This document shows positions 21,023-25,471 of a DNA stretch of 64,000 nt, piece after piece. The translations under genes were made by a program, and so were the position numbers. The notes beneath the pieces were generated by a model, which ran no database searches, was not told the DNA's origin, and saw nothing but the letters and a program-made list of their open reading frames with translations. Location: the sequence record PZ496580.1, one strand, 5' to 3'. Position 1 is the first letter of the stretch, and each line of letters begins with the position of its first letter. The DNA is from a phage.

Positions 21023-23266
21023 TTACAGTTTACAAGATGAACATTCACTAGAGTCTTCCGTACCATCAGCACCATCACGCACGTTAGCGTAATACAGTGT
21101 CTTGAGGCCGTAATATTGAGCAAACAACATATCATCTAATACATCAGCAATATCGACTTTACCAGTCTTATAAGTGCTTGGATCATAGGATGTGTTGGAA
21201 CTAATCGCCTGATCTACAAACTTCTGCATGATCGCTGCCAGTGTCAGATAAGGCTTGTTACCTTTCTTGATCAGTGTCCAAAGCAGGTCAATAACATCAG
21301 CATTATTCTCTACGTTCGGAATAACCTGATTAAATTGCCCTTCTTTCGATCCTTTAACCGATACAATCCCGCGAGGCGGTTCAATACCGTTTGTGCTGTT
21401 AGATACCTGAGAAGACGACTCACAAGGCATCAGAGCCGAAAGCGTACTGTTACGAATGCCATATTTTTTCAGGTCTTCGCGCAGTTCCTCCCAATCCATC
21501 TCATACACCGGATCAACCAGTTCATCTACTGTCTTTTTGTACCAGTCGATAGGAAGTTCACCGCGACCATAACGTGTTTCGTGCATCAGTTCGCAAGCAC
21601 CCTTCTCTTTAGCCAGTTGCACACTAGCCTTAATCAGAGCATATTGCAAGCGTTCAAACGTTTTATGCGTAAACTCGTTAGCGTCTTCATATGTGAAGAA
21701 ATTATCCGCGAGATACGATGCAAAGTTAGTCACACCAACACCCAGAGATCGACGTTTTTTGGCTGTCAGAGCTTGTTCTACAGGATAATCCTGGTAATCT
21801 AACAAGTTGTCAAGTGCACGCACCATAACCATAGCAATGCGTTCTACTTCTTCCATATTTTCGATATCGAAATTACCTAAAACATATGCTGCCAAAGTAC
21901 ATAGGCTGATCTCTGAATCATCACGACCCATCGGTTTAGTAGGCAGTGCAATTTCACAACACAGGTTAGATTGTTTAATCGGTGCTACATTACGAATAAA
22001 CGCCCCGTGATTGTTCATGTTGTCTGTGAACGCTGGATAGATTCGACCAGTGTTAAAACGTTCAATTGCCACCGCTAAAAACAGGTCTTCGGCTTTAACA
22101 CGAGTTTTACGAACACTCGGATCTTTTTCCAGTTTTTCGTAAAGCTGGCGGAAACCTTCCTCATCTCGGAAGTACAGATCCCACAACAAGCCACCTGCAA
22201 CATCTGGACTAAACAGAGTAATGTAATCCCGTTTAAGGAATCGCTCTACCATCAGGTTATTAATCTGTACGCCGTAATCAAGATGGCGAATGCGGTTATC
22301 TTCTACCCCTTTGTTGTTCTTCAACACAATAAGACTTTCAAACTCTAAATGCCACATTGGGTAATAGAGAGTCGCCGCCCCGCCACGAATACCGCCTTGT
22401 GAGCATGACTTAACGGCAGTCTGAAAATGTTTCCAGAATGGGATAACGCCAGTATGACGAACTTCACCATGCCCGATCTTAGATCCTTCCGCGCGAATCA
22501 TGCCAGCGTTGATACCGATGCCAGCACGCTTACTAATATACTTGATGATTGCATTTGCTGTTTCGTTGATGCCCTGCAATGAGTCATCAGATTCGATCAC
22601 CACACACGAACTAAATTGGCGTGTTGGAGTACGCACACCAGCCATAATCGGAGTAGGAAGAGAAATTTGCTTATTAGCAACAGCATTATAAAAATCAATC
22701 ACATGTTCAAGTCGATTTTCTGTCTCTTCTTGATGTAAACACATACCGATCAGCATATACGCAAATTGCGGTGTTTCGATGATTTTCTTAGTGCTGCGAT
22801 CCTGAACAAGATATTTCTCTTTTAATTGCATCGCACCAGCATAGGTCATTTTAAAATCAAGTTTATGATCGATGAATTTCTCCAGATATTCCACTTCTTC
22901 ACGGGAATACTTTTGCAGAATTTCACGATCATATTTTCCGGTTGCAATATTACGCTCAATGTGGCTATAAAAATCAATAGGTTGGAATTGACCGTATACT
23001 GATTTACGAAGCGCGAACATTGCAAGGTTACTTGCTACATATTGATAATCTGGTGTTTCTACAGTAATGTTATCTGCTGCGACCTTAATCAATACTTTCT
23101 GGATATCATTGGTAGACATACCTTCTGTCAGAAGTGGTTCAACCATATCAAACAATTCATATGGATCAACGTTATGACCTTCGGCTGCCGCTTCCAGAAT
23201 TTTCATTACTTTTTCTTTTTCAAACGGAACAGTCAGACCGGAAGACTTAACAACATTTTTAATCAT
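21023..23266 (-). CDS. nrdA: ribonucleotide reductase alpha subunit
   Basis: 747 aa (T4 NrdA ~754); ATP-cone N-terminus, catalytic NLCCEI and C-terminal CSSCKL-type tail. Confidence 0.9.
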   Translation of the reverse strand: MIKNVVKSSGLTVPFEKEKVMKILEAAAEGHNVDPYELFDMVEPLLTEGMSTNDIQKVLIKVAADNITVETPDYQYVASNLAMFALRKSVYGQFQPIDFYSHIERNIATGKYDREILQKYSREEVEYLEKFIDHKLDFKMTYAGAMQLKEKYLVQDRSTKKIIETPQFAYMLIGMCLHQEETENRLEHVIDFYNAVANKQISLPTPIMAGVRTPTRQFSSCVVIESDDSLQGINETANAIIKYISKRAGIGINAGMIRAEGSKIGHGEVRHTGVIPFWKHFQTAVKSCSQGGIRGGAATLYYPMWHLEFESLIVLKNNKGVEDNRIRHLDYGVQINNLMVERFLKRDYITLFSPDVAGGLLWDLYFRDEEGFRQLYEKLEKDPSVRKTRVKAEDLFLAVAIERFNTGRIYPAFTDNMNNHGAFIRNVAPIKQSNLCCEIALPTKPMGRDDSEISLCTLAAYVLGNFDIENMEEVERIAMVMVRALDNLLDYQDYPVEQALTAKKRRSLGVGVTNFASYLADNFFTYEDANEFTHKTFERLQYALIKASVQLAKEKGACELMHETRYGRGELPIDWYKKTVDELVDPVYEMDWEELREDLKKYGIRNSTLSALMPCESSSQVSNSTNGIEPPRGIVSVKGSKEGQFNQVIPNVENNADVIDLLWTLIKKGNKPYLTLAAIMQKFVDQAISSNTSYDPSTYKTGKVDIADVLDDMLFAQYYGLKTLYYANVRDGADGTEDSSECSSCKL

Positions 23267-23313
23267 ATTACCTCACTTCATATTTTAGCAGGAACAAGTT
23301 TATCCTCCATAAC

Positions 23314-23330
23314 GGGGGCTTTCGCCCCCT
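23314..23330 (-). other. GC-rich hairpin in td-nrdA spacer
   Basis: approx; GGGGGC-TTTC-GCCCCC, no clear U-tract on minus strand. Confidence 0.3.
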
Positions 23331-23334
23331 TTGT

Positions 23335-24567
23335 TTATACTGCCATTTGAGCGGTGATTGCTGGATGGCTTTGATAGTTGTGAATTTTAAAGTCTTTCGG
23401 AGTCTTTGTCAATACCTCATCTAAAGATTTAAATTCCGGCAACTCGATTGTTGGTTTATCAAACGGAACACGGCTTAACTGTTCCATAACTTGATCAAAA
23501 TGGTTTTTGTAAATGTGAGTATCTCCACCAGAGAAAATCAGTTCTCCTACCTCAAGATCACACATTTTCGCTATGATGTGAGTTAACAGCGCATAGCTGG
23601 CAACATTAAAGGGCAAGCCCAAAAAGCTGTCTACGCTTCGCTGAAACCACATACAAGACAGTTTACCTTCATTGACATAGAATTGTACGAACGGATGACA
23701 TACACCCAATACAGCATTATGTGTTCCTTGTACGTTCCATGAGTCAATGATGATACGTCGATCCGTTGGATTGTTTTTAATTTGTTCAATCACGTTTTGT
23801 AACTGGTCTTCCCAAATCTTCGGGCGATAGACATATTCTTCATCGTCTTTAGTGCTCGATGTGTCTACGTCCATACTAGCAAAGATCGTGGTATCTGGCG
23901 CTAAAATATCCCCGCCCAGATAATCACTATCAAGCAGATAACCGAAATAACCATCATCTACCCATTCCTGGAATCCCCACAAGCAATATGCATCATTAAC
24001 AAAATTAGATTGAGTCTTCCAGTGGTCTGCTACTAAGAATAGATTATATTCAGAATCAAACTCTTCATAACGCATACCACGCCAGATAGCACATAAACGG
24101 TCTTCTGTTTCATTGGTTGGCGTAAAGTCTTCTACCCACGGGTGCTTAAATGTATGTGTATATTTGCTCTTAACGCGCTTAATTTTGATTTCACCGTGTG
24201 GATGAATCGGTTTGCGTCGCCACGCCATACCATACATATTGCCGACATTATAACCATTGAATCGCAAAGGATTCTTTTCTTTCATATCAAGACAGTTGCC
24301 GCGCCAAATGTCGAAGGCTTCTTCGTCAAACTGACCGCGTGTAATTTCCTGTAAGCGACGGCGGTCAAGTGATCCCTCCATAAACCATAGCAACTCGCCA
24401 ATTACAGAGGCTGTAGCCATCTTTTTAGTGGTCAGTAATGGGAAACCCTTGTTTAAATCGATTCGCATCTCTGCGCCGAATTTAGAGAGCGTACCTACCC
24501 CCGTGCGGTCTTCACGAGGCCAGCCATTATCAAGAACATCACGCAACAGTTTCAAATATTCTTTCAT
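23335..24567 (-). CDS. td: thymidylate synthase with large internal insertion
   Basis: 410 aa; ThyA motifs (DRTGVGT, CHPFVQFYV, GLPFNVASYALL, GGDTHIYKNH) flank a ~130-aa in-frame insert after the YGMAWR segment. Confidence 0.8.
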   Translation of the reverse strand: MKEYLKLLRDVLDNGWPREDRTGVGTLSKFGAEMRIDLNKGFPLLTTKKMATASVIGELLWFMEGSLDRRRLQEITRGQFDEEAFDIWRGNCLDMKEKNPLRFNGYNVGNMYGMAWRRKPIHPHGEIKIKRVKSKYTHTFKHPWVEDFTPTNETEDRLCAIWRGMRYEEFDSEYNLFLVADHWKTQSNFVNDAYCLWGFQEWVDDGYFGYLLDSDYLGGDILAPDTTIFASMDVDTSSTKDDEEYVYRPKIWEDQLQNVIEQIKNNPTDRRIIIDSWNVQGTHNAVLGVCHPFVQFYVNEGKLSCMWFQRSVDSFLGLPFNVASYALLTHIIAKMCDLEVGELIFSGGDTHIYKNHFDQVMEQLSRVPFDKPTIELPEFKSLDEVLTKTPKDFKIHNYQSHPAITAQMAV

Positions 24568-24835
24568 CCCACATCACCTTTTTCTTGTTGATTGCTTTCT
24601 TACGCAGTTTTGCTACTGTCTCGTCAATATTGATAAAGACAACGCCCGGATCGAATACAGTAACAGGTCTTGAAATATCGCTATTTTCCTGTACTGGAAG
24701 CCATGATGCTTTAGCTTCATCATAGAGATATTGTAAACCGTAATAATCTACGGCTACTGCGTAGTTTTCACTGGTAGCTGACCATAATTGAATAATGGTT
24801 ATTTTCATTATTGTTCCCGTCCACAATGTAAACAC
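24539..24835 (-). CDS. hypothetical protein (start uncertain)
   Basis: ORF track; overlaps td start; likely internal start MKITIIQ. Confidence 0.35.
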   Translation of the reverse strand: MFTLWTGTIMKITIIQLWSATSENYAVAVDYYGLQYLYDEAKASWLPVQENSDISRPVTVFDPGVVFINIDETVAKLRKKAINKKKVMWDERIFETVA

Positions 24836-24901
24836 CGACTACCAGCAAACATCAAAGATTCACCACAATGTTTGCACTCATAATCTGTCAGAATTTTCAT
24901 G

Positions 24902-25471
24902 TTACGCCTTCTTACGTTCCAAAATTTGCTCACTGATCAGGTAATCATCAAGGAAGTAATTATGTTCTTCTTTTGTTGCAAAGTCAAAATATAATTCCTG
25001 AATCATTTCCTTAGAGATACCAACATCATATTCGAACGGATCGTTGATTCCTGAACGTTGAACATACGTTAACACAATACGGTCCGCAAAGTCAACCGCT
25101 TTTTCAATCAGGGAAGGTCCGCCGATAACACTTACCAAACCTTGCGTTTTCTCTAGGGCTTTTAACAGATCCTTCAATTCAATTCCAGTGTACACATCTG
25201 GTTGGTCGCCGTTTTTTGTTTTCGGTTCTGGCTTGCTGGTATCGGTACTAACAACCACATTCAAACGTCCCCAAAGTGCTTTAGGCAGACTTTCAAAGGT
25301 ATTACGTCCCATTACTACCGCAGCAAAATCAACCTCGCCAATAGTGCGAATTTTAAAGTTTTCCATATCCTTTTTGATTGGACGACCCCACGGTAAACCG
25401 CCTTTAAAACCAAACGCCCAATTTTCATCTGACATTTTAGTGTCACCAATCGCAAATACACATTGAATCAT
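24902..25471 (-). CDS. frd: dihydrofolate reductase
   Basis: 189 aa; MIQCVFAIG...GLPW...MGRNTFESLP matches DHFR fold motifs and T4 Frd start. Confidence 0.8.
   Translation of the reverse strand: MIQCVFAIGDTKMSDENWAFGFKGGLPWGRPIKKDMENFKIRTIGEVDFAAVVMGRNTFESLPKALWGRLNVVVSTDTSKPEPKTKNGDQPDVYTGIELKDLLKALEKTQGLVSVIGGPSLIEKAVDFADRIVLTYVQRSGINDPFEYDVGISKEMIQELYFDFATKEEHNYFLDDYLISEQILERKKA

Follow-up and report, generated by a model that had tools for sequence, protein, structure and literature searches.

The thymidylate synthase gene td of the phage sequence record PZ496580.1 probably carries the decayed core of a homing endonuclease of the IPA-HNH family, which entered a surface hairpin of the enzyme (ThyA) in frame, with neither an intron nor an intein, later shrank, and became a fixed appendage. 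The stretch analysed (64,000 nt, hereafter the window, on which all positions are counted) was identified as an RB49-like Krischvirus, i.e. a "pseudo-T-even" T4-like coliphage, since its Td protein is 99.5% identical to that of RB49. The td gene (23335..24567, minus strand) is a single uninterrupted open reading frame (ORF) of 410 amino acids (aa) plus stop, the length already given in the initial annotation of the window. The insert occupies aa 118-253 (23809..24216, minus strand) and has no ThyA homology.

An in-frame insert between two ThyA segments

The assignment of td to the thymidylate synthases is supported by PF00303 (284 bits against a cut-off of 24.3, E 1.2e-84), TIGR03284 (282.7 bits against a cut-off of 108.35) and thymidylate synthases of the PDB, which match at E 1e-68. 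The ThyA matches from Pfam, NCBIfam and the PDB fall in two pieces, aa 1-~117 and 254-410, corresponding to residues 1-99 and 110-264 of E. coli ThyA, respectively (in the searches against Pfam and PDB, the first stretch runs over aa 1-~82/117 and aligns to E. coli residues 1-82). The N-terminal segment (aa 1-117; 24217..24567, minus strand) ends in YGMAWR (aa 112-117), which aligns with YGKQWR of the E. coli enzyme, and contains the invariant residues R21, W88, Y112, W116 and R117. The C-terminal segment (aa 254-410 and the stop; 23335..23808, minus strand) starts with D254-Q255, equivalent to E. coli D110-Q111, aligns with E. coli 110-264 at 1.9e-47, and carries the catalytic Cys290 together with the RR, RSxD, N and HxY motifs. 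R21, R270, R271, C290, H291, R310, S311, D313, N321, H351 and Y353 all lie in invariant or nearly invariant alignment columns; their E. coli counterparts (R21, R126-R127, C146, H147, R166, S167, D169, N177, H207 and Y209) were checked and all are kept. Both the Pfam and PDB matches and the catalytic residues agree with the initial description of conserved ThyA blocks on either side of the extra sequence. That description placed ~130 extra residues at 23814-24216, which differs by only a few bases from the limits found here (about 135 residues, 23809-24216). In the multiple alignment, the insert breaks up the hairpin W101-PTPDG-RHI-D110 of E. coli ThyA.

Homology to the IPA-HNH homing endonucleases

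A tblastn search with the insert recovered related longer inserts at the same site in the enzymes of UE-S1 (Asteriusvirus, 517 aa), phiKp_21 (Alcyoneusvirus, 517 aa) and the Vibrio phages D181 and D148 (477 aa, annotated 'HNH endonuclease'). In these Asteriusvirus, Alcyoneusvirus and Vibrio-phage enzymes the insert measures 200-290 aa. The long inserts of UE-S1, phiKp_21 and D181 match PHROG families of HNH endonucleases (phrog_2081 at 4e-32, phrog_953 at 6e-25 and phrog_374 at 8e-21), and long inserts also match free-standing proteins of 170-290 aa in 1310 phage records. The free-standing homologues are found between terminase fragments (Yersinia phage fPS-85), next to ribonucleotide reductase genes (Bacillus phage Sophrita) and next to DNA polymerase (ICP1 and phage alia), which are classic positions for homing endonucleases. 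Among the proteins matched is gp59 of ICP1, one of the three founders of the IPA-HNH family in that phage, together with gp115-116 and gp209 (Barth, Dunham and Seed 2023, PMC10448857). The family is defined by an N-terminal domain that is too divergent for the Pfam HNH_3 model and is recognised as HNH by HHsearch, followed by a C-terminal AP2 domain (PMC10448857). AP2 or NUMOD-like C-termini were confirmed in several of the free-standing homologues. According to the same authors, homing of IPA-HNH genes is experimentally unverified and T4 is without the family; thymidylate synthase is not mentioned in their study (PMC10448857).

The RB49-type insert alone gives a weak match to phrog_2081 ('HNH endonuclease'), and Pfam holds no model for the insert domain. 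A profile built from six RB49-type short inserts was compared with a profile of 28 free-standing proteins using hhalign, and the two align at 96.1% probability (E 3.5e-9, 96 columns). Since these profiles align directly, the homology holds without the long inserts as a bridge. Judged from these profile alignments, the insert is a homologue of the atypical N-terminal HNH-like domain of the IPA-HNH endonucleases.

In fPS-85 (locus L005, 1292-3831), the 178-aa insert homologue g045 lies between two ORFs annotated 'Phage DNA packaging', so that the terminase is apparently split; g043, a second 'homing endonuclease', is found just upstream of g045.

Predicted fold of the insert

Structure prediction, which the initial annotation had proposed as a check, was carried out with AlphaFold2 (AF2). 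The RB49-type insert folds confidently (predicted local distance difference test, pLDDT, of 93) and in the model its ends form a continuous hairpin with the enzyme. For full-length Td the predicted template modelling score (pTM) is 0.91, suggesting that the insert is held in a defined orientation relative to the enzyme. The first hairpin strand of ThyA is prolonged by stalk strand 1 (aa 118-130, RKPIHPHGEIKIK; 24178..24216, minus strand; DSSP strand E118-130, pLDDT about 85-95). Stalk strand 2 (aa 245-253, YVYRPKIWE; 23809..23835, minus strand; strand E245-254) leads back into it, and its V.RP.I motif is kept in all insert-bearing enzymes. The first and last residues of the insert are thereby predicted to lengthen the hairpin into a two-stranded stalk, which places the foreign domain away from the body of the enzyme. 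With the domain held off on this stalk and the catalytic residues all kept, Td should remain active.

The helical half of the domain (aa 153-204; 23956..24111, minus strand) consists of the helices H153-169, H181-193 and H199-204, and contains W161..M164, V179..W183..F189 and the LWGFQEWVD motif; its W, M, V, W and F line up with invariant columns of the free-standing family. It is followed by a putative two-strand remnant of a beta-beta-alpha-metal motif (aa 210-231, YLLDSDYLGGDILAPDTTIFAS; 23875..23940, minus strand; strands E210-213 and E228-231), which includes a degenerate LDSD motif (23923-23934, minus strand) and aligns to LDKD...YSPDTC.F of the long inserts and free-standing proteins, with K, Y and C replaced. 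The acidic loop (aa 232-244, MDVDTSSTKDDEE; 23836..23874, minus strand) has no helix in the model and coincides with an alignment gap relative to the long forms, where it occupies the place of their motif helix, bearing the invariant Asn, and of their C-terminal module. No solved relative of the domain was found, either with Foldseek against the PDB or with the family profile against PDB sequences. A match of the latter kind to an 'LDKD' in ribosomal protein uL3 (E 0.13) was considered to be due to chance.

Reduction of the insert and loss of the endonuclease motif

The alignment with thymidylate synthases of related phages, also proposed initially, includes about 25 insert-bearing enzymes and reveals a graded reduction. 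The enzymes of 517-560 aa have an insert made of an N-terminal beta-rich module, the core, and a C-terminal module (NGGG..FK.Y....F.S...L), colinear with whole free-standing proteins. Those of 469-477 aa are without the N-terminal module, and those of 417-418 aa without both modules. The RB49 type (401-414 aa) is the smallest in the series. No Pfam match to a C-terminal AP2/NUMOD-type DNA-binding domain was obtained in the insert, and the alignment shows that the C-terminal module is deleted.

The same trend is seen in the residues. In the 28 free-standing proteins, W, R, Y, V, W and F as well as the motif L-D-K-D...Y-S-P-x-x-C...N are invariant or nearly so, and the long inserts keep D-K-D...Y..C...N. 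The corresponding motif in RB49 reads L-D-S-D...I-L-A-P-D-T-T, with L for Y, T for C, and the Asn helix replaced by the acidic loop. Four of the six family-invariant residues (D, K, D, Y, C, N) are lost from the RB49 insert, along with both flanking modules and the motif helix. Other short forms read LDCD, LTQK, LSCD, LSCK and LSLV at this position, and the motif Y-C-L-W-G-x-Q-E-x-V-D is invariant among the short forms. Charge also differs along the series: the long inserts and free-standing proteins are basic (isoelectric points, pI, of 8.4-9.3), the tip of the RB49 insert has a net charge of -18 and a pI of 4.05, and there are non-acidic short forms (pI about 5.9 for P0003 and P0005, and 9.4 for P0013). 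Because of the lost motif residues and Asn helix and the shift to an acidic domain, nuclease or DNA-binding activity of the RB49 insert is now very probably absent.

The initial annotation had suggested either an inserted domain or a degenerate remnant of a mobile element; the IPA-HNH homology and the loss of conserved residues and flanking modules bear this out. What the present analysis adds is the specific family, the finding that jumbo phages have longer versions which look intact and are polymorphic, the second, independent site of insertion in Tenacibaculum phage PTm5, and purifying selection.

Selection on the insert and tests for splicing elements

Selection was measured in the host frame by the Nei-Gojobori method. 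In pairs of sequences with a synonymous divergence (dS) from 0.1 to above 1, the ratio of nonsynonymous to synonymous divergence (dN/dS) is 0.12-0.27 for the insert and 0.02-0.15 for the ThyA flanks, and for most pairs the insert value is several-fold above that of the flanks. As the ratio is low across pairs of several divergences, the insert is selected as a protein in the frame of its host, and the codon comparisons show that the remnant does not simply drift.

The initial annotation had reasoned that the insert is read in frame, has no intein terminal signatures and is not the group I intron known from td of T4, and each of these points holds. Purifying selection in the host frame supports the in-frame reading. 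A search of 22800-25200 against Rfam gave no family at E <=1, so that no ribozyme core was detected; together with the continuous frame and selection at the protein level, this argues against a T4-type group I intron. No Hint or intein model of Pfam matches Td at E <=10. The junction lacks a C-terminal HN followed by Cys, Ser or Thr: the insert ends in ...RPKIWE, and the next residue is Asp254. Since neither a Hint splicing domain nor the terminal residues are present, the insert should, as far as the sequence tells, remain unspliced in the mature protein.

An endonuclease gene could also be hidden in another frame, as in the ShiLan domain, an in-frame insertion in a mycobacteriophage DNA methylase (Arsenault, Gosselin and Gogarten 2025, PMC11855218). 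Such an out-of-frame endonuclease was sought over 23800-24230 and none was found, the longest alternative ORF on the coding strand measuring 41 aa. On the opposite strand there is an ORF of 70 aa, most of it beyond the limits of the insert.

Distribution of the insert and apparent mobility of the long forms

An ORF of 406-410 aa is present at >=90% protein identity in 59 Krischvirus records, and the same 59 were found with the insert alone as query. The insert is fixed in this genus (59/59 genomes), with no presence/absence polymorphism, and the only differences among the td genes are substitutions and a single indel of four codons, which keeps the frame. It is therefore not a free-standing, variably present gene, but an in-frame part of td in all 59 genomes. 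The insert also occurs in the more distant T4-like relatives P0003-P0006, all in a frd-td-nrdA context, and its frame is likewise intact in several metagenome contigs. A sequencing error or frameshift, which had been named initially as a possible source of the extra residues, is contradicted by the intact frame in 59 independent genomes. The other reservation raised at that stage, i.e. that such an insert might be common in ThyA homologues, was checked among roughly 8000 scored 90%-identity ThyA clusters: it is rare, with ~25 clusters having 400-613 aa and the extra sequence at the same place.

An exhaustive phmmer search with the insert alone against 1.84 billion representatives gave 14 matches, about 11 of them long thymidylate synthases. 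Two of the high-ranking matches were judged spurious and set aside: P0241 is a repeat protein of low complexity, and P0242 gave 13 fragmentary matches and only unrelated Pfam domains. A word-index search with the insert alone gave no match, which reflects a limitation of the index, as the full-length query and the exhaustive phmmer search found relatives. Just two near-identical loci were obtained from IMG/VR.

The long forms are polymorphic. At least three td alleles exist in Asteriusvirus: 309 aa without the element (121Q and BF17), 517 aa (UE-S1) and 546 aa (ph0011). UE-S1 and 121Q are 96.4% identical in their DNA up to td codon 91, and 93% identical after a 1029-nt cassette that in UE-S1 stands for 405 unrelated nt of 121Q. 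The cassette comprises the insert with 26 upstream and about 77 downstream ThyA codons, including that of the catalytic Cys, and is ~82% identical to the Klebsiella jumbo phages KP13-7 and phiKp_21. Such a pattern is what homing with co-conversion of the flanks would leave. The loci without the element are L019 894-1823 (121Q) and L021 3094-4023 (BF17). In the Escherichia phage ph0011, td (L020 894-2534) has a divergent long insert and is annotated only as 'hypothetical protein'.

Tenacibaculum phage PTm5 has a 527-aa ThyA homologue (L022 1108-2691) whose insert belongs to this family as well (98%, E 1.7e-13) and looks intact. It occupies another surface loop, upstream of YG.QW, with IWRDW on one side and GAMYGVQW on the other. 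The position of this insert indicates a second, independent in-frame colonisation. Within Krischvirus, td is mosaic: codons 241-360 of JSE (L015) have 60-86% nucleotide identity to the window, compared with 93-100% elsewhere in the gene. This divergent part lies directly downstream of the insert and covers the active site.

Interpretation and alternatives

The origin and history of the insert can be pictured as follows. An IPA-HNH gene would have entered td in frame, inside the surface beta-hairpin that corresponds to E. coli residues 101-110, without an intron or intein, and the entire polypeptide would be translated, insert included. That the enzyme tolerated the insertion may be due to the stalk into which the ends of the insert zip. 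The lineage of RB49 would then have seen the N-terminal module and the C-terminal module of DNA-binding type deleted, the beta-beta-alpha helix with its invariant Asn lost, D-K-D changed to D-S-D, and the domain turned strongly acidic. What remains would be an appendage that still folds, is under selective constraint and has become fixed in Krischvirus. One possible present role is to protect the former homing site.

Several points weigh against this view of the insert as a decayed endonuclease. The purifying selection (dN/dS 0.12-0.27) indicates more than a passive relic, the fold is predicted with confidence, the insert is fixed in 59/59 Krischvirus genomes, and LWGFQEWVD is more conserved in the enzyme-embedded forms than in most of the free-standing ones. 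Homologous recombination of the usual kind, and not homing driven by an endonuclease, could account for the exchanged cassette in Asteriusvirus. The analysis shows the homology, the anatomy of the insert, its graded decay, the selection on it and the polymorphism of the long forms; that the insert first arrived by homing, that it has lost its activity, and that neither RNA nor protein is spliced are things we infer.

Part of this evidence would also fit an endonuclease-derived domain that has been put to new use, either as an acidic protein-interaction or DNA-mimic module docking Td to partners or as a regulator of the enzyme. Candidate partners would be the T4-type deoxynucleoside triphosphate (dNTP) synthesis complex, gp32 and the replisome. 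This explanation shares its origin with the decayed endonuclease and differs only in the present function, and we consider it rather unlikely. It is favoured by the low dN/dS over pairs at several levels of divergence, by the presence of the insert in all 59 Krischvirus genomes and P0003-P0006, always in the frd-td-nrdA context, by the confident fold and the full-length pTM, by the Y-C-L-W-G-x-Q-E-x-V-D motif shared by all short forms, and by the shift to a net charge of -18, which is unusual for simple decay. However, purifying selection could merely mirror the cost of misfolding inside an essential enzyme, dN/dS of the insert is several-fold above that of the ThyA flanks for most pairs, and the pI values of P0003, P0005 and P0013 imply that no common surface property is conserved.

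That the RB49-type insert is still a homing endonuclease, or a nickase made dimeric by the enzyme homodimer, which cuts the insert-less td of co-infecting phages, is very unlikely. Its homology to a family considered to consist of homing endonucleases (PMC10448857) speaks in favour, as does the mosaic beside the insert in JSE (aa 241-360); against this stand the replacement of four of the six family-invariant residues, the missing motif helix and accessory modules, the strong acidity, which is unfavourable for DNA binding, and the lack of presence/absence polymorphism in Krischvirus. Even less probable is the removal of the segment before the mature enzyme is formed, through an unrecognised intron, an atypical intein or another protein-splicing element. 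While td is a classic intron host in T4, and the ShiLan domain demonstrates that in-frame insertions can hide unorthodox elements (PMC11855218), the insert has no match in Rfam or to Hint/intein models at the thresholds given above, no Cys, Ser or Thr after its end, and no alternative-frame ORF >41 aa on the coding strand; in addition, the segment is under protein-level selection in the host frame, and in the structure model its two ends join the enzyme in one continuous hairpin. An artefact of sequencing or assembly, or a chance open frame, in favour of which no evidence was found, can practically be dismissed in view of the intact frame in 59 independent genomes and several metagenome contigs, the single indel being in frame, and the homologues detected at the protein level.

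Beyond the decayed insert of RB49, it is conceivable, though somewhat doubtful, that the Td-embedded IPA-HNH domains represent an unrecognised kind of mobile element, which is inherited as a permanent in-frame domain of an essential enzyme, needs neither intron nor intein, and would be tolerated because it grows out of a surface hairpin. The forms in jumbo phages (UE-S1, phiKp_21, ph0011 and PTm5) would then be active and spread as cassettes with co-converted td flanks, the obligate homodimer of the enzyme perhaps enabling double-strand cleavage, and RB49 would be the end state, kept for immunity (the homing site being destroyed) or for a role of benefit to the host that the acidic remnant has acquired.

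Comparison with known systems

The core of the insert corresponds to the N-terminal HNH-like domain of the IPA-HNH proteins described in ICP1, with which the long inserts are colinear, N-terminal beta module included, and both are associated with genes of nucleotide metabolism and replication (PMC10448857). Unlike the published proteins, which are free-standing with a C-terminal AP2/NUMOD domain, the Td domain is internal and in frame, and in RB49 it is devoid of the DNA-binding modules and of K, Y, C and N.

The nearest published concept is the insertion in the ShiLan methylase (PMC11855218). Neither element is an intron or an intein, both are predicted to loop out from a phage enzyme and are linked to an HNH endonuclease, and neither host protein appears to shed its extra residues. 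They differ in that the HNH gene of ShiLan is out of frame and its in-frame product is a meaningless hairpin, whereas the endonuclease-like domain of Td is in the host frame; furthermore, ShiLan is sporadic, and the RB49 insert fixed and decayed.

Inteins with homing-endonuclease domains likewise place an in-frame endonuclease domain inside a conserved enzyme of nucleotide metabolism or replication, and it is well known that they shrink after loss of the endonuclease (mini-inteins); the Td insert differs from them in having neither the Hint splicing domain nor the terminal residues. The td group I intron of T4, which encodes I-TevI, is found in the same host gene, and in both cases a selfish endonuclease targets the gene of a conserved enzyme. 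The solution is at the RNA level in T4 and at the protein level here, I-TevI is a GIY-YIG enzyme, no ribozyme was detected in td of the window, and the Pfam and PDB alignments place the RB49 insert at a site well before the region of the catalytic Cys.

Endonucleases that split their host gene, such as the free-standing mobE in nrdA of Aeh1, also invade essential genes without a self-splicing element, as g045 of fPS-85 and the split nrdA of contig L012 illustrate. They break the host gene into two polypeptides, whereas Td is one read-through chain. In L012 (4588-7239), a T4-like metagenome contig that also encodes P0005, a Td with a short insert, a gene for a 237-aa canonical H-N-H endonuclease divides nrdA into two ORFs. 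This protein was considered as a member of the insert family, found to be unrelated, and excluded from the profile.

Lineage-specific loop inserts are known in thymidylate synthases, e.g. the 50-aa insert in the small domain of L. casei and those of eukaryotes, and as in Td, surface loops around YG.QW tolerate extra residues. Phage enzymes of 299-304 aa and 309 aa have 25-45 extra residues at the same hairpin. Such loop inserts differ from that of Td in being short and in not originating from a mobile-element protein.

To our knowledge, homing endonucleases are thought to survive in essential genes only via removal as introns or inteins, intergenic placement, or splitting of the gene. The td locus and its relatives point to a fourth arrangement, in which translation simply continues through the endonuclease, making it one more domain of the host enzyme. 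Among the relatives a series of life-cycle stages is preserved, from intact and polymorphic, through partly deleted, to a fixed remnant that is very probably nuclease-dead. With this series, the gain of a domain from selfish DNA can be tested directly, in an enzyme that is well understood and in a tractable coliphage. The RB49 gene has been annotated plainly as td since its genome was deposited, and a full-text literature search found no description of the Td insert or of endonuclease domains inside thymidylate synthase. Annotations of 400-560 aa as 'thymidylate synthase' or 'hypothetical protein' in such phages hide a domain derived from an endonuclease. The ThyA hairpin (E. coli residues 101-110) accepts >250 foreign residues, which may be of use in protein engineering.

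Gene neighbourhood and minor observations

The gene order frd-td-nrdA of the window is that of T4-type phages. Upstream of td lies frd (24902..25471, minus strand), a 189-aa ORF assigned to dihydrofolate reductase by comparison with relatives, in which a DHFR_1 Pfam match accompanies the frd-td-nrdA order; downstream is nrdA (21023..23266, minus strand), a 747-aa ORF for the large subunit of ribonucleotide reductase, annotated as nrdA in JSE. The spacer between td and nrdA (23267-23334) is about 68 nt in both the window and JSE. SSG23 and Ec_Makalu_003 have an additional small gene, nrdA.1, between td and nrdA (L017 and L018, from 1513), and a DUF4326 gene is found at the position of the spacer in more distant relatives (L010, L012 and L013).

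On the other side of td, a 98-aa ORF (24539-24835, minus strand) overlaps the start of the gene by 29 nt and corresponds to a hypothetical protein in JSE, JK32, SSG23 and Makalu_003. It is bridged to frd by a putative gene, a 41-aa ORF (24808-24933, minus strand) with two Cys-x-x-Cys pairs (CKHC...CLHC) resembling a zinc ribbon. In contig L011, which encodes P0002 (87% identical to the window Td), gene 32 and frd are separated by the gene (671-1693) of a 340-aa protein with CapR-type zinc fingers, domains that T5orf172 homing endonucleases typically carry.

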